A stretch of DNA of 61,093 nt from Deltaproteobacteria bacterium (lineage in GTDB: Bacteria; Desulfobacterota; Deferrimicrobia; Deferrimicrobiales; Deferrimicrobiaceae), in assembly GCA_037441465.1 (NCBI GenBank), contig JBBISC010000002.1, forward strand, positions 1 through 61,093, written 5' to 3'. The notes beneath the pieces are model-generated. The model did no database searches. It was not told the DNA's origin and saw nothing but the letters and a program-made list of their open reading frames with translations. This document shows, piece after piece, positions 6,683 to 13,055 of this stretch. Position numbers and translations under genes: made by a program. Position 1 is the first letter of the stretch; every line of letters starts with the position of its first letter.

Positions 6683-7093
6683 TACGTTCAGGTCTTAGCG
6701 GACGATGCGCCCTTAAGGGTCAACCGGAGGAGCGGGAATAACCGCCCCTCTTCTTTCTCCGCCTCCTCCGGTTCCATCCCTTCGACCAGTCGTATCACGG
6801 ACGCGATGATCTGTTCTCCCACCATCCGGTCCGCGGGCTGGACAACAGGAATCTCTTTGAGAAACTCTTCACTGACATGGTAACGGATCCACTAGGCGCC
6901 GTCAGAGAAAGTCGTTCCCAATTCCGACCGTTGGTCAGAATGGCGGATCGCAACGTCCCATACGACCCTATCCGGCGTTCGAAATCCTCTCTTTCTTTCG
7001 AAGATGGGGAATGTCCCGGTCGGAGCCCCATCCGGCGTTTCCCGTCATCCGTTTGGATCGCCCTCTCGGGCTTCAGGTCCGACGGCGCAACCA

Positions 7094-7729
7094 TCAACCG
7101 GTCTTCCGCCGATGGGTCTCCTTCTCCGTCACGGCGAGATGCCCACGGATCGCATCGCGAATCATCTCCAGCGTCTCTTCCACTGTCTCTCCCTGGGACA
7201 GGCACCCGGGCAACTCCGGGCACTCAACCCAATACCCACCATCTTCCAGATCGGTATGAAGAATCACGGAAAAACGCCGACGACCAATTTGTACAGAGAA
7301 GAACTTTTTCTCTTCCGAGATCTGTATCTTCTCTTTCAATTCTTTCAGTAGTGCCCCAATGGAAAGCGCGAAGACCAACTGCCCCGCTCTCAGGGTATCC
7401 AAGACGATTTTTCGGTTCGAAGTAAGCACAAAAATGGTTTCTCCATCCGTAATGAATTGCAGGGAGGCAAGCGGGCGTGTGAGCTCGGCGCCTCTTTTTT
7501 TCAGAAAAGAGAGGCACCGGCGCATCTTTTGAAGGCTGATTCCTTTCTCCTTGAGAGATACGGCGACGCGGAACTGCACAAGATCAACAAAATCGTACAG
7601 CCGGCGGGTTCCCTTCCCGGATGGACTTTTCATGGAAGGCTTGATGAAATGCGTCCGGTCCCAATAGTCGATTTGCCTGGGGGTGAGACCGGTAAGTGCC
7701 GCTACCGTTCGGCTGCCGAATCCCTCCAT
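7094..7729 (-). CDS. MerR-family HTH fused to a HicB-like (UPF0150) antitoxin domain
   Basis: The N-terminus is FGSRTVAALTGLTPRQIDYWDRTHFIKPS...GTRRLYDFVDLVQFRVAVSLKEKGISLQKM (MerR HTH). The C-terminus is FSVILHTDLEDGGYWVECPELPGCLSQGETVEETLEMIRDAIRGHL (HicB fold). The ATG at 7729 is preceded by AAAGGAGAAG. GC content is lower than the flanks. Confidence 0.7.
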   Translation of the reverse strand: MEGFGSRTVAALTGLTPRQIDYWDRTHFIKPSMKSPSGKGTRRLYDFVDLVQFRVAVSLKEKGISLQKMRRCLSFLKKRGAELTRPLASLQFITDGETIFVLTSNRKIVLDTLRAGQLVFALSIGALLKELKEKIQISEEKKFFSVQIGRRRFSVILHTDLEDGGYWVECPELPGCLSQGETVEETLEMIRDAIRGHLAVTEKETHRRKTG

Positions 7730-7817
7730 GATAGCTTCTCCTTTGGGGGTATAAACTACATGCATGTATTTTACATGACAAGAAAAGAAGGGCAACCCGT
7801 ACGTGGAGGATTAGGAA

Positions 7818-9095
7818 CTACCGTTTCGTGATCCGTGCCAGTCCGCCCATGTAGGGGCGCAGGGCCTCGGGGACATCGACGGCGCCGTCCTCCCGCTGAT
7901 AATTTTCGAGGATCGCGACGACCGACCGACCGACCGCCAGCCCGGACCCGTTCAAGGTGTGGGCCAAACGGGTCTTCCCCGACGCCCCTTCCCGGAAGCG
8001 GATCTTCGCGCGGCGCGCCTGAAAGTCGGTGAAGGTGCTGCAGGAGGAGATCTCCCGGTACCGGCCCTGGGAAGGAACCCAGACCTCGATGTCGTACGTC
8101 TTCGCGGATGAGAAACCGATTTCCCCCGTGCACAGGGTCACCACGCGATACGGCAGGTCGAGGCGCCGAAGGATCTCCTCGGCGTCGTCGGTGAGCTTCT
8201 CCAGCTCCTGCGCGGACTCCTCCGGACGGCAGATCTTGACGATCTCCACCTTGTTGAACTGGTGCTGCCGGATCATCCCCCGCGTGTCCTTGCCGTAGGA
8301 CCCCGCCTCCGCCCGGAAGCACGGGGTGTACGCCGTCATCTTCAGGGGAAGCGTCTCGGCGGCGAGGATCTCGTCCCGCACGATGTTCGTCACGGGGACT
8401 TCGGCGGTGGGGACGAGGAAGTAGTCGGTCCCCGCCACGCGGAAGAGATCCTCCTCGAACTTGGGGAGCTGCCCGGTGCCGAAGAACGAGGCGCTGTTCG
8501 CCATGTAGGGGGGAAGCACTTCCAGGTAGCCGTGCTCCCGCGTGTGGACGTCGAGCATGAAGTTGATGAGCGCCCGCTCCAGAAGCGCCCCCGCCCCCTT
8601 CGACAGGCAGAAGCGGCCCCCGGTAATCTTGGCCGCCCGGTCGAAGTCGAGGATGTCCAGCGCCGCGCCGAGGTCGACGTGGTCCTTGACCGGGAAAGAG
8701 AAGACCCGCGGGGTCCCCCACGTCCGCACGACGGGGTTGTCCTCCTCCCCCGCGCCGTCCGGGACCGAGGGGTCCGGCACGTTCGGGAGGACGAGGAGAA
8801 ACTCCTCCATCTTCCGCTCGATCGTCGCGAGTTCCGCTTCCGCCTCTTTGAGCCGGGTCGAGAGCGCCTTCATCCGCTCCATGAGCTCCGACGGGTCCTT
8901 CTTCTCCCGGCGCAGACGCCCGATCTCCTCGGAAGCGGCGTTGCGCTCCGCACGCATCCCCTCGACGGCTGCGAGCCGTTCCCGGCGCGCCTTGTCCAGC
9001 GCCAGGAATCCGTCGAGGGTGAGGGAGGACCGGCGCTTCCGCAGCGCTTCTTCAACGACCGCTATGTTTTCCCTTACGAATTTCAGGTCGAGCAT
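7818..9095 (-). CDS. serS: seryl-tRNA synthetase
   Basis: Begins [22 protein letters not shown], and contains class II motifs ([43 protein letters not shown]). Confidence 0.95.
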
Positions 9096-9099
9096 CTTG

Positions 9100-10194
9100 T
9101 CAGGCCGCTCCCTCTGGAAAACGGAGATGTGTCTCACGCCGGAAGGGGGTGAACCCGGCGTCCCGGATCGTGGCGACGATCTCCTCCTCGGACATCCGGA
9201 AGGAGACGCCCGCGGAGGCGACCACGTTCTCCTCCATCATCGTGCTGCCGAAGTCGTCCGCGCCGAAGAAGAGCCCGATCTGCGCCACTTTCGCCCCCAT
9301 CGTCACCCACGACACCTGGACGGTCGAAACGTTCGGCAACAGGATCCGGGACAGCGCGAGCACCCGCAGGTACCCCACGGCATGGCCGAATCCCAGGGCC
9401 GACGCCTCCCCGAACCGCGGGTCGCGCGACAGCTCGGTGTTCCCCGATTGGAACACCCAGGGGATGAACGCGGTGAAGCCCCCCGTATCCTCCTGGAGCG
9501 CGCGGACCCGGAGCAGATGGGCGACGATCGCCTCGGGGCTCTCCACGCTGCCAAACATCATCGTCGCGGAGGACCGGAGCCCCTGCCGATGGGCCTCGCG
9601 CATCACCGCCGCCCACTGTTCCCAACCGATCTTCTTCGGGCTGATCCGGCGACGCACCTCGTCGTCGAGGATCTCCGCCCCGCCGCCGGGGATCGAGTCA
9701 AGACCGGCGTCCGAAAGACGCGCGATCACCTCCCCGATCGTCATCTTCGACTGATGCGCGAAGTGCCACACTTCCGGCGGAGAGAATCCGTGCAACAGGA
9801 TCGGGTGCCGCTTCACAGCCCGCACCAGCCGGACCGCCTCGTCGATCCCCCAGTCGGGGTGCAGCCCCCCCTGCAGCAGCACGCGGACCCCGCCCGCCGC
9901 GATCGTGTCCACGATCTTCGCGGAAAGCTCCTCCTCCGACAGGACGTAGGCGTCGGGAGCGTCCTTCTTCCGGTAGAAGGCGCAAAAGGAGCAGCCGCAG
10001 GAGCAGACGTTCGTGTAGTTGATGTTCCGGTCGACGATGTAGGTGACGATTCCGTCCGGGTGCAGTTTCCGCCGGACCGCGTCGGCCGCCCGCCCGAGCT
10101 CGAACAGCGGCGCCTCCCGCAGCAGCCGGACCCCCTCCTGAACCGTCAGTTTGCCCACGATCCCCTTTTGGAACAGCTCTCCCCAATCCATCAT
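9100..10194 (-). CDS. mqnC: radical SAM menaquinone (futalosine pathway) enzyme, MqnC-like cyclic dehypoxanthinyl futalosine synthase
   Basis: Contains [27 protein letters not shown] (CxxxCxxC), HGFSPPEV and GGGAEIL. The start MMDWGELF is at 10194. The MqnC versus MqnE assignment is from motif memory only. Confidence 0.7.
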
Positions 10195-10216
10195 TGACCA
10201 AGACGGAAGTCCGGCA

Positions 10217-10672
10217 TTACTTCCGCAACCTTTCGATTTCCCGTCGGATCTCTTCAACTACATCTTTGTTGTGAATTACTTTTCGTTTCTCTTCCGCAAT
10301 GGAGATTATGTAGAAGACCTTCCCCCCGTACTTTGCGGTGAACTTTTCATGGGTTTTTTTCTGAAATCCGGCCTCAGCGATGATTTGAGGGATATAAGCA
10401 TATCCTGAGGGTTTGATCTGCAGTCCGATATATTTCCCGTTTACTTGTATGAAAAAATCGACGTTGTAACCCCTGTCCCACTCGTCCGGCGCAGGCTCCA
10501 CCTTCACTCCGAGAAGGTCTTGCAGTTGTCCGTAAATCGTCTGGATTTCTGTCTGATACCCATCGAAGGTCCTATGGATGACAAGTGTGATGATAAAATC
10601 GATTCCAACCTTGGTCTTCCTTGTCAATCCCCATCGCATGTTGGCCTGGTTCAGGATCCATTCCTTGGCCAT
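10217..10672 (-). CDS. small PD-(D/E)xK-type restriction endonuclease candidate (MjaI-like)
   Basis: 151 aa with WDRGYNVDFFIQVNGKYIGLQIKP (D...QxK nuclease motif). Its ATG overlaps the methyltransferase stop by 1 nt (TAATG). It lies in a low-GC islet. Confidence 0.5.
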   Translation of the reverse strand: MAKEWILNQANMRWGLTRKTKVGIDFIITLVIHRTFDGYQTEIQTIYGQLQDLLGVKVEPAPDEWDRGYNVDFFIQVNGKYIGLQIKPSGYAYIPQIIAEAGFQKKTHEKFTAKYGGKVFYIISIAEEKRKVIHNKDVVEEIRREIERLRK

Positions 10673-11961
10673 TACACGGCCTCTTTTTGGGAAAGAAATT
10701 TTGTCCTGTACCGAAAATCGTAGCCGGTGTCCACATCAACCAAGCCGCTTTTGATGAGATGTGCGTTGATGAAGGTCTTGTTCGCCAAGTAGAGGTAGCA
10801 CATGAGGCGACGTTCGTCGTCGTATTTCAGGGCATCGAATTTAAGATACACTTTTTCCCCATTCGTTTTTTCCCTGATGAAATTGATCGCTTCTTCTTTT
10901 TTCCGGGGGTCCTCTCTGATTCCGATCAGTCGAATGGAGACTCCGTTGCTTAAGATCAACGTCTCCGGGGTAACAACCTCCGCAACCGTGAAAAACGTTT
11001 CCCTCCCCGTTTCCGATCCGTCGATCTTCGAACCGAATCGGATACGTTTAGGGTCGATCTTCTTATCGAAACGGACGGGATCCGTAAAGACGTATGGCAT
11101 ATCTTTCATTCTGGCCGAGTAGTCCGGTGCCCGACGGTCCGTACTCACCAATTCAATCCGGCTATCGCGGAAAAGATCCCTCTGCTCACCGCCCACTTTC
11201 TCGACGATCTTGGGAACATAGCTTGGATTGATCTCGTACCCCACAGAATTGCGGTTCAACTTTTTCGCCACAAGCGAAGTCGTACCGCTCCCGAGGAACG
11301 GATCGAGCACCGTGTCTCCCACGAAACTGAACATCCGAACAAGCCGCCGCGGCAGTTCTTCGGGGAACATCGCAAGATGCCTGTCCTGCTTCTCCCCCGG
11401 GAAATTCCAATGCCCTGCGAAATACTGATTCCAATCCTCCGTCGACATCTTCGACTGTTCCTTTACGTCTTCGGTCGCCTTCGGGGAGACACCATATTTC
11501 TTGAAGAACAGGATGAACTCGTAATCCAGCTTGAGAATCCCGTTCCTTGGGTAGGGGAAAGATCCCATGATCGTCGCGCCGCCCGTGGTGTTACAGGTTG
11601 TCACCTTCTGCCAGATGACGGCGCCCATGTAATCGAAGCCCGCGGTCTCGCAGAATTTGATGATCTCCGTGCGGATAGGGATGATCTTGTATCTTCCGTA
11701 GTAAACCGATCTCGCGAACTGATCGCCGATATTGACGCACAAGCGACAACCTTCGTGCAGGACCCTGTGGCATTCACTCCAAACAAGGTTCAGGTTGTTG
11801 ATGTATTCCTCGTAGCTGTCGTTGAACCCGATCTGCCCTTCGTTCCCGTAATCCTTCAGCTGCCAGTACGGCGGCGAAGTCACCACTAGATGGACGGACC
11901 GATCCGGCAGTTCTTTCATCCACCGAGAATCACCGATGATGATCTTGTGGGAAGTCGTCAT
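10672..11961 (-). CDS. beta-class N4/N6 DNA methyltransferase fused to a C-terminal SNase-like (thermonuclease-fold) domain
   Basis: Contains HLVVTSPPYW (motif IV), then LDPFLGSGTTSLVAKK (motif I). The C-terminus reads VVTPETLILSNGVSIRLIGIREDP...KVYLKFD...RRLMCYLYLANKTFINAHLIKSGLV and aligns to staphylococcal nuclease. The start MTTSHKIIIGDS overlaps the mqnE stop (ATGA). Confidence 0.8.
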   Translation of the reverse strand: MTTSHKIIIGDSRWMKELPDRSVHLVVTSPPYWQLKDYGNEGQIGFNDSYEEYINNLNLVWSECHRVLHEGCRLCVNIGDQFARSVYYGRYKIIPIRTEIIKFCETAGFDYMGAVIWQKVTTCNTTGGATIMGSFPYPRNGILKLDYEFILFFKKYGVSPKATEDVKEQSKMSTEDWNQYFAGHWNFPGEKQDRHLAMFPEELPRRLVRMFSFVGDTVLDPFLGSGTTSLVAKKLNRNSVGYEINPSYVPKIVEKVGGEQRDLFRDSRIELVSTDRRAPDYSARMKDMPYVFTDPVRFDKKIDPKRIRFGSKIDGSETGRETFFTVAEVVTPETLILSNGVSIRLIGIREDPRKKEEAINFIREKTNGEKVYLKFDALKYDDERRLMCYLYLANKTFINAHLIKSGLVDVDTGYDFRYRTKFLSQKEAV

Positions 11962-13055
11962 GCCCGGGCGCCTTCCGCGGGCCACTCGCGGACCACGTTG
12001 TAGAGGGTGTCCCGCTCGACGGGGATCTTCCCCGCCTGGCGGATCATCGTGACCAGCTCGGCGACGGACATCTCCTGCCCCGCCTGCGCTCCGGCCGCGT
12101 GGGTGATCTTCTCCTCGACCACGGTCCCGTCGATGTCGTCCACCCCGAAGTGGAGGGAGATCTGCGCCAGCTTCGGTCCCACCATGATCCAGAACGACTT
12201 GATGTGGCGGAAGTTGTCGAGGTAGAGCCTCGCCACCGCCAGCGCGAGCAGGTCATCGAGCCCCGTGGTGTACCCCTTGGCGATCTCCGTGTTCTTCGGG
12301 TGGAAGGCCAGGGGGATGAACGACTGGAACCCGCCGGTGCGGTCCTGAAGCGTACGCAGGCGCCGCATGTGGTCCACGCGCGACTCCAGCGTCTCCACGT
12401 GGCCGTAGAGCATCGTCGCGTTGCTTCGAAGTCCCGCCGCGTGGACCGCCTCCATCACCTCGAGCCATCGGTCCCCCGGGATTTTCTCGGGGCAGATCTC
12501 TTTCCGGATCTCAGGGGCGAAGATCTCCGCCCCGCCGCCGGGAAGGGATCCGAGCCCCGCATCCTTCAATTGCGCGATCACCTCGGCCAGCGGAAGCCCG
12601 GTGATCTCCCGGAAATAATCGATCTCAACGGCCGTGAAGGCCTGGACGTGCAGGGAGGGGAACCGCTCCCGCAGGGAGCGCAGCATCGTCAGGTAGAAGT
12701 CGAAGGGGAGATCCGGGTGCAACCCCCCGACGATGTGAAGTTCCGTGGCACGCTGTTCCCGAGCCTCTTCCGCCCGGCGGAGGATTTCGTCCATCGTCAT
12801 CGTGTACGCAAGGGGATCGTCCTTCCCTTTGCTGAACGCGCAGAACCTGCACCGGTTCACGCAGATGTTCGTCGGATTCACGTGCCGGTTGACGATGAAG
12901 CAGACGCGGTCGCCGTTCGCCCGTCGGTTCGCCAGGGCCGCCATCTCCCCGACGGCGAGGATGTCCCGCGAGCGGTAGAGTGCGAGCGCGTCGCTCTCCG
13001 ACAGCCGCTCCCCCGCTTCGACCTTATCCCGAAGGTGTCTTGATTCCGTTTCCAT
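11958..13055 (-). CDS. mqnE: radical SAM menaquinone (futalosine pathway) enzyme, MqnE-like aminofutalosine synthase
   Basis: Contains FIVNRHVNPTNICVNRCRFCAFSKGKDD, HVQAFTAVEI and PGGGAEIF. It is a paralog of the 9100-10194 gene. Confidence 0.7.
   Translation of the reverse strand: METESRHLRDKVEAGERLSESDALALYRSRDILAVGEMAALANRRANGDRVCFIVNRHVNPTNICVNRCRFCAFSKGKDDPLAYTMTMDEILRRAEEAREQRATELHIVGGLHPDLPFDFYLTMLRSLRERFPSLHVQAFTAVEIDYFREITGLPLAEVIAQLKDAGLGSLPGGGAEIFAPEIRKEICPEKIPGDRWLEVMEAVHAAGLRSNATMLYGHVETLESRVDHMRRLRTLQDRTGGFQSFIPLAFHPKNTEIAKGYTTGLDDLLALAVARLYLDNFRHIKSFWIMVGPKLAQISLHFGVDDIDGTVVEEKITHAAGAQAGQEMSVAELVTMIRQAGKIPVERDTLYNVVREWPAEGARA

Follow-up and report, generated by a model that had tools for sequence, protein, structure and literature searches.

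Within the 61,093-nt contig JBBISC010000002.1 of a Deltaproteobacteria bacterium from the family Deferrimicrobiaceae (assembly GCA_037441465.1; this whole stretch of DNA is called the window below) mqnE and mqnC, two genes of the futalosine pathway of menaquinone synthesis, are separated by a gene for a 429-aa DNA methyltransferase (MTase) and an open reading frame (ORF) for a 151-aa protein related to restriction endonucleases (REases). All of them are read from the minus strand in the order mqnE, MTase, 151-aa ORF, mqnC, as follows from the ORF list and the sequence. This pair of foreign genes is best read as a restriction-modification (R-M) cassette whose restriction has recently been lost or is still being lost. 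The explanation which we favour, with a probability of roughly 0.75, is that a cassette of the MjaI family entered the mqnE/mqnC junction a single time and that its REase gene recently suffered an internal deletion, so that the MTase is in effect a new orphan. An earlier note on this DNA had described the 151-aa protein as a PD-(D/E)xK-like nuclease and the whole insert as a horizontally acquired defence module. The former description had to be corrected, as, judged by alignment, the ORF is a 209-aa REase devoid of residues 24–81 and not a complete small nuclease, and the locus is probably not a working defence module, because the REase is internally deleted here and is almost or wholly gone in two sister species (G001 and G010).

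The evidence for the deletion comes from the endonuclease family itself. Among the best 120 of the 5335 homologues found, lengths range from 198 to 216 aa and are mostly 209–210 aa; the 151-aa architecture is absent from these 120 and is recorded solely from this contig. Residues 1–23 of the window protein correspond to residues 1–23 of the full-length relative P0001 and residues 24–151 to its residues 82–209, with about 95% identity. The nearest intact alleles (L164, L165) read ...AAGGTTGGA, then the 174 nt GCTGTC...GATTGC, and then ATCGATTTT... at the point where the window passes directly from the first of these flanks to the second. The ends of the deleted segment share only an imperfect 9-nt similarity with 5/9 positions matching. 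The profile hidden Markov model (HMM) RE_MjaI (PF09568) recognises the window protein with 71.3 bits against a cut-off of 22.7 (E = 1.1e-19), at model positions 77–164 only, and the PADLOC model for type II REases is likewise matched over its C-terminal half only. Full-length relatives P0001 and P0116 align with RE_MjaI over positions 1–164 at 145–155 bits (145 bits for P0001), and the window protein does not cover this complete domain. The 58 lost residues include 22 near-invariant ones in a family with a mean column identity of 82%. The family is on the whole unusually conserved, with 75–83% identity between bacterial and archaeal phyla.

In the AlphaFold2 model of the full-length protein (mean predicted local distance difference test score, pLDDT, 77.7) the deletion covers three helices together with the beginning of the long core helix, and when the 151-aa form is modelled, pLDDT drops below 50 over residues 1–40 while the beta core is still predicted confidently. 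The models contain a putative alpha-beta-beta-beta-alpha-beta core with invariant E100, D130 and Q143-x-K145 in full-length numbering. Foldseek returned weak matches (E from 2e-3 to 0.1, template modelling score 0.35–0.46), nearly all the top ones being PD-(D/E)XK nucleases, with Hjc resolvases, cap-snatching endonucleases and EcoO109I among them. No solved homologue emerged from the PDB sequence search with the REase profile, which gave chance-level matches to nsp8 only. Codon changes unique to the window remnant are synonymous in 13 cases and non-synonymous in 1. Since the synonymous changes prevail to this extent and the 151-aa form is on record solely from this contig, the deletion looks recent. 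Most probably it abolishes restriction, and the 151-aa enzyme is likely to be inactive, as the conservation of the missing part suggests.

The MTase, in contrast with its partner, appears intact. It matches PF01555 (N6_N4_Mtase) at aa 23–252 (E = 3.4e-44, 151.9 bits against a cut-off of 26.7) and is covered end to end by the PADLOC MTase_II model PDLC03259 (E = 2.1e-193). Motif IV, TSPPYW, lies near aa 27–32, that is N-terminally to motif I, DPFLGSGTT, near aa 228–236; by these signatures the protein is a beta-class N4/N6 DNA methyltransferase. The HMM search with both proteins that the earlier note had suggested thus placed each of them in a known family. The C-terminal part of the MTase (10675–10990) carries a weakly scoring SNase-like domain (PF00565), which is hit in most MTase homologues across bacterial and archaeal phyla according to precomputed annotations, and which the PADLOC model also spans; to judge from these matches the tail is a family-wide feature. 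The likely specificity of the enzyme is CTAG and the likely product N4-methylcytosine (m4C), as suggested by the MjaI-type pairing and the SPPY motif; MTase relatives are automatically annotated as “adenine-specific” in their source records. In every pair of relatives compared, G001 versus G010 included, the ratio of non-synonymous to synonymous divergence (dN/dS) of the MTase is 0.08–0.11, and it is about 0.08 for the two sister species with REase deletions larger than that of the window. No second copy of either the MTase or the REase gene was found in this 94.5%-complete genome.

The earlier note had taken the module for a horizontal acquisition and had proposed to look for empty sites in relatives, and these were indeed found. 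The junction was compared in 24 species representatives of the same genus and in 16 more distant genomes, which represent other families of the class and phylum. In 19 of the 24 congeners mqnE stands directly next to mqnC, three (G001, G010, G020) have the insert and two were not judgeable; of the more distant genomes all 12 that have both genes keep them adjacent. The native empty junction is a GTGA overlap made up of the mqnE stop TGA and the mqnC start GTG, and the cassette begins right past this tetranucleotide. The start codon of the MTase is thus the former start of mqnC: it is GTG in G001, G010, L037 and L173 and ATG in the window. Upstream of it the empty alleles have GGAGGG before mqnC, in the place where the window has GGAAGG before the MTase. 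Because the cassette starts directly after GTGA, the MTase uses both the old start codon of mqnC and its GGAGG-like motif. According to the junction alignment, about the first 20 codons of mqnC in the window differ from those of the empty-site allele.

Occupied sites display all degrees of preservation of the REase gene. Metagenomic relatives (L036–L043, L165–L173), one of them a contig of 137 kb, encode an intact 209-aa REase in the order mqnE-MTase-REase-mqnC-serS. At the right end of the cassette two types of junction were registered. In type A (window, L036, L037, G010) a 22-nt spacer forms an 8-codon ORF reaching from TAATG to ATGA, while in type B (L041, L165, G001 and others) the REase stop TGA overlaps a new mqnC ATG. 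G001 retains the MTase (92% identity), and what remains of its REase gene, codons 1 to about 21 plus about 126–151, is out of frame; G010 retains the MTase (88% identity) and has lost the REase, its MTase ORF running on to an ATGA overlap with mqnC. In other phyla the REase lies directly downstream of the MTase at 52 of 80 homologous loci, and approximately 24 of the 80 have room for it but none there; none of these loci is near mqn genes. Taken together, the two sister species and these counts indicate that loss of the REase with retention of the MTase is the common fate of this cassette family. The idea that only frame-preserving lesions of the REase are tolerated, due to coupling with mqnC, agrees with the window and with G010, but is contradicted by G001, where the frameshifted remnant stops about 75 nt before mqnC. 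The earlier statement that the module should be hard to lose suits the MTase only; restriction is evidently easy to lose, and the close relative G019 has an empty site.

A single entry is supported by the phylogeny. In a tree of 94 homologues from many phyla the 12 MTases from the mqn site group in a single clade (Shimodaira-Hasegawa-like approximate likelihood ratio support 99), which argues that the cassette came into the genus once. A scan of genome contigs outside the genus of the window revealed at least 592 homologous MTases in unrelated phyla, 62–70% identical and none of them near mqn genes. In the mqnE tree the occupied alleles are interspersed with empty ones at three or more points, and the tight clade to which the window belongs includes L036 with an intact REase, the window with the deleted form, G001 with a remnant and G019 with an empty site. 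The MTases of L036 and L173 group together (support 100/99), but their mqnE genes stand on different sides of a 95/95 branch. Only such conflict of well-supported branches was used as a sign of incongruence, the groups for approximately unbiased (AU) tests having been picked after the trees were seen. The simplest reading of this incongruence is an old presence/absence polymorphism, which would have been reshuffled by homologous recombination via conserved flanks. Synonymous divergence (dS) of the MTase exceeds that of mqnE 2–7 times in the same genome pairs, and amelioration of a formerly AT-richer insert may inflate it.

The architecture of the locus (Table 1) confirms the seamless fit of a low-GC insert claimed at the outset. 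The mqnE stop TGA (11960–11958) overlaps the MTase start ATG (11961–11959) as ATGA; the MTase stop TAA (10674–10672) and the ATG of the 151-aa ORF (10672–10670) have one base in common in TAATG; and exactly 22 nt (10195–10216) separate the stop of this ORF (10219–10217) from the mqnC ATG at 10194. GC content in 300-nt windows falls to 0.46–0.56 over positions 10200–11999 from 0.63–0.70 on either side, and GC content at third codon positions (GC3) is 0.58 in the REase remnant and 0.69 in the MTase against 0.88–0.91 in mqnE and mqnC. Both of the latter genes score above the trusted cut-offs of their equivalog HMMs. The supposed lack of mobility genes and flanking repeats was also borne out: the search for direct or inverted repeats around the insert gave nothing beyond chance-level 12–13-mers, none is seen in the junction alignment, and no target duplication was found, for which a direct repeat longer than 30 bp on both sides of the R-M unit, corresponding to the empty site, was required. 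Promoter- or terminator-like sites are absent from the coding strand within 9100–13055. In the window allele no canonical Shine-Dalgarno motif precedes mqnC. The mini-ORF in the spacer is joined to both neighbours: one base is common to its ATG and the stop TAA of the REase, and its own TGA forms an ATGA with the start codon of mqnC. The frame of this mini-ORF is kept in L036, L037 and L039, and the fused MTase ORF of G010 uses the same frame.

Table 1. Positions of features at the mqnE/mqnC locus of the window
Feature	Position	Strand	Basis or remark
mqnE, aminofutalosine synthase, 365 aa	11958–13055	-	TIGR03700, 530.9 bits against a cut-off of 434.55; Radical_SAM and CofH_C
Shine-Dalgarno-like GGAAGG	11971–11976	-	9 nt upstream of the MTase start, within the 3' end of mqnE
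Type II beta-class DNA methyltransferase, 429 aa, appears intact	10672–11961	-	PF01555, PADLOC MTase_II
CTAG site inside the MTase gene	11886–11889	.	one of 7 in the 61-kb window
SNase-like C-terminal domain of the MTase, aa 356–419	10705–10896	-	PF00565, E = 1.1e-4, 23 bits against a cut-off of 21
MjaI-family restriction endonuclease remnant, 151 aa	10217–10672	-	partial RE_MjaI match, alignments
Junction of the in-frame 174-nt deletion	10603–10604	-	codon 23 ends at 10604; former codon 82 begins at 10603
8-codon mini-ORF, MPDFRLGQ and stop	10191–10217	-	read from the sequence; fills the 22-nt spacer; any function would be inferred
mqnC, cyclic dehypoxanthinyl futalosine synthase, 364 aa	9100–10194	-	TIGR03699, 454 bits against a cut-off of 428.1
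serS	7818–9095	-	ORF list; likely ATG 4 nt past the mqnC stop

These data suggest the following course of events. A cassette composed of a beta-class SPPY MTase, probably an N4-cytosine enzyme with CTAG as its target, and of a putative PD-(D/E)XK-type endonuclease downstream of it would have entered an ancestor within the genus once. The point of entry would be precisely the GTGA in which the native mqnE and mqnC overlap, and the MTase would have taken over the start codon and the Shine-Dalgarno site of mqnC. The whole cassette would then be expressed within the string mqnE-mqnC-serS without signals of its own; both co-transcription and translational coupling agree with the sequence, and the earlier picture of a foreign R-M module co-expressed with the mqn genes would be correct in outline. 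In the genus it presumably persisted as a presence/absence polymorphism, swapped between lineages by recombination in the mqn flanks. In the lineage of the window a clean 174-nt in-frame deletion removed 58 conserved N-terminal residues and most likely ended restriction, and what operates now would be an intact MTase plus a translated nuclease remnant still carrying ribosomes to mqnC.

Several observations weigh against this explanation, and a part of them favours a cassette that is still a working R-M system, with the 151-aa protein being a shortened endonuclease, active on CTAG or altered, and the MTase being needed for protection. The remnant has retained an open frame with a Shine-Dalgarno motif, AAGAGG, 7 nt upstream of its start, as well as the beta-sheet core with catalytic-looking residues E42, D72 and Q85-x-K87 of the window protein, equivalent to the invariant set of the full-length enzyme. 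The Foldseek probabilities obtained with its model reach 0.99 for Hjc and 0.96–0.98 for cap-snatching endonucleases, and the 13 to 1 proportion of its lineage-specific changes displays no relaxed constraint, so that residual or altered activity is conceivable. Nevertheless, we find a functional shortened enzyme unlikely: the protein lacks a highly conserved segment with no counterpart of such architecture among the best 120 of the 5335 homologues or beyond one contig, its first 40 residues have no confident structure in the model, and sister species tolerate complete loss of the REase. Among other points that speak against our explanation, co-transcription of the cassette with mqn genes is presumed; CTAG specificity and m4C chemistry are assigned from family membership and the SPPY motif; the groupings in the AU tests were chosen post hoc; and the depletion of CTAG considered below is genus-wide and says nothing specific about the cassette.

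The deletion is, moreover, read from an assembly, and the source genome (G000) is a 2.3-Mb metagenome-assembled genome in 176 contigs. Such fragmentation, together with the fact that intact alleles are common among related environmental contigs, gives some ground to suppose that the deletion stems from faulty assembly or binning, or belongs to a minority variant, and that the organism really has the intact 209-aa gene and normal R-M. We consider it quite improbable, since the junction is clean and in frame with no repeat long enough to collapse an assembly (the best being the 9-nt similarity mentioned), the 61-kb contig is otherwise colinear with relatives, and independent assemblies of other species (G001, G010) also have REase deletions. 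Hardly credible at all is that the cassette was already present in the ancestor of the genus, or even earlier, and that the empty sites arose by secondary precise deletions instead of the site being invaded horizontally. Deep divergence of cassette alleles (dS up to 0.95), beyond that of the flanks, and the scatter of occupied alleles over the mqnE tree could be adduced in its favour. However, mqnE and mqnC are adjacent in all 12 genomes of other families that have both; the empty alleles share the GTGA overlap and the native 5' end of mqnC, which repeated deletions would not recreate; and GC3 of the cassettes is 0.58–0.73 versus about 0.9 in host genes. Single entry followed by recent decay of the REase remains, therefore, the explanation that we prefer.

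The frequency of the presumed target was estimated as well. CTAG is the rarest tetranucleotide in the genome of the window, with 152 sites in 2.3 Mb and an observed-to-expected ratio of 0.156; in 400-kb samples of two empty-site congeners, G002 and G012, this ratio is 0.20 and 0.29, and the site density in the genome of the window is about 40% lower than in these samples. The assumption that CTAG avoidance is a footprint of past restriction was rejected, as the depletion is genus-wide and includes genomes with empty sites.

Some features of the surroundings deserve mention in their own right. A GC-rich repeat of about 114 nt (...GGCTTCCACTCCGCTACGCTCGCGACCTTCGACCGCTCGCTGCGATTCCGCTCGACGC...), which looks like an element of the MITE (miniature inverted-repeat transposable element) or REP (repetitive extragenic palindromic) type, gave 53 blastn hits in the genome of the window, many of them at contig ends. 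It is located between mqnE and the MTase in L165 (2486–2700), L167–L170 and L172 and also occurs at the empty sites of L017 and L020; in the repeat-bearing relatives a diverged copy of about 35 nt from the 3' end of mqnE stands just before the MTase start. The mqnE/mqnC junction may be regarded as an insertion hotspot marked by this repeat. Upstream of mqnE a gene for a GAF/histidine kinase overlaps its start by about 32 nt (13024–13055, minus strand), so the kinase gene may be the first of the packed string, with mqnE, the cassette, mqnC and serS after it. The order from the kinase to serS is found also in L041, L165 and L173, and the mqnC-serS order is conserved in L036, L041, L165 and L173. 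The slot just past serS differs among relatives: in the window (6800–7800) it is occupied by a MerR-HTH/HicB-like ORF, in L041 (9311–10753) and L165 (7292–8056) by another small N6_N4 methyltransferase, and in L173 (7217–8630) by a HicB-HicA pair followed by an Eco57I-type enzyme. It may be a second small hotspot for defence or toxin-antitoxin genes beside the operon.

With respect to known systems, the locus is a clean new example of two known processes, insertion of an R-M unit and emergence of an orphan MTase, and not a system of a new kind. MjaI of Methanocaldococcus jannaschii cuts CTAG (PMC2615612), and the methyltransferases M.MjaI, M.MthZI and M.BfaI are beta-class enzymes that carry the SPPY motif and produce 4mC at CTAG (PMC5867850). 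With MjaI and its isoschizomer MthZI the cassette has in common an RE_MjaI endonuclease, a beta-class SPPY MTase and the arrangement as an adjacent same-strand gene pair. In contrast to them, the MTase here has 429 aa with an SNase-like tail, whereas characterised CTAG MTases have 303–364 aa (PMC5867850), the endonuclease lacks 58 residues, the host is bacterial, the pair resides in a biosynthetic operon and its specificity is inferred.

Furuta, Abe and Kobayashi (2010, PMC2853133) have described R-M units that lack mobility genes and are inserted at start/stop sites and in operon-like structures. As in their cases, a lone type II R-M pair of lower GC content stands between co-oriented host genes, relatives have empty sites, and the start/stop-site junction keeps the target genes intact. 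Unlike them, long target duplication is absent here, the insert fits exactly to a stop/start tetranucleotide with an overlap or a mini-ORF at every junction, and the target is the essential menaquinone operon. Halobacteria are well known to possess orphan CTAG methyltransferases, for instance HVO_0794 of Haloferax volcanii (PMC5867850; Blow et al. 2016, PMC4752239). Here too a CTAG-family beta-class MTase is kept without a working cognate endonuclease, and in G001 and G010 it already stands alone and evolves under purifying selection. The difference is that the transition is still under way, with REase genes at one orthologous site that are whole, deleted in part or deleted completely, and that the enzyme belongs to another MTase subfamily with an SNase-like tail and no known regulatory role. 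What is unusual in the present case is the exactness of the fit, the essential host operon and the presence of every stage of decay at one orthologous site.

One can tentatively suppose, although we regard this as rather doubtful, that the cassette persists independently of restriction: situated in the coupled stop/start of an essential operon, it would pass ribosomes to mqnC by way of the overlaps and the bridging 8-codon ORF, and the conserved mqnE and mqnC flanks would serve as homology arms for its spread between species, so that the MTase survives loss of the REase; alternatively, the MTase may protect against re-invading CTAG systems. If it is true, loss of the whole cassette or polar lesions in it would cost menaquinone synthesis. 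A practical caution concerns annotation, as both PADLOC and Pfam flag the 151-aa ORF as a type II REase though more than a quarter of the protein is missing. The takeover of a start codon combined with a chain of stop/start overlaps offers a testable case of expression of foreign genes without their own regulatory DNA. Finally, empty site, intact R-M, in-frame-deleted REase, REase remnant and MTase only make up a natural series at one site, which lets both the birth of an orphan MTase and the fate of a selfish cassette in an essential operon be studied in close relatives.

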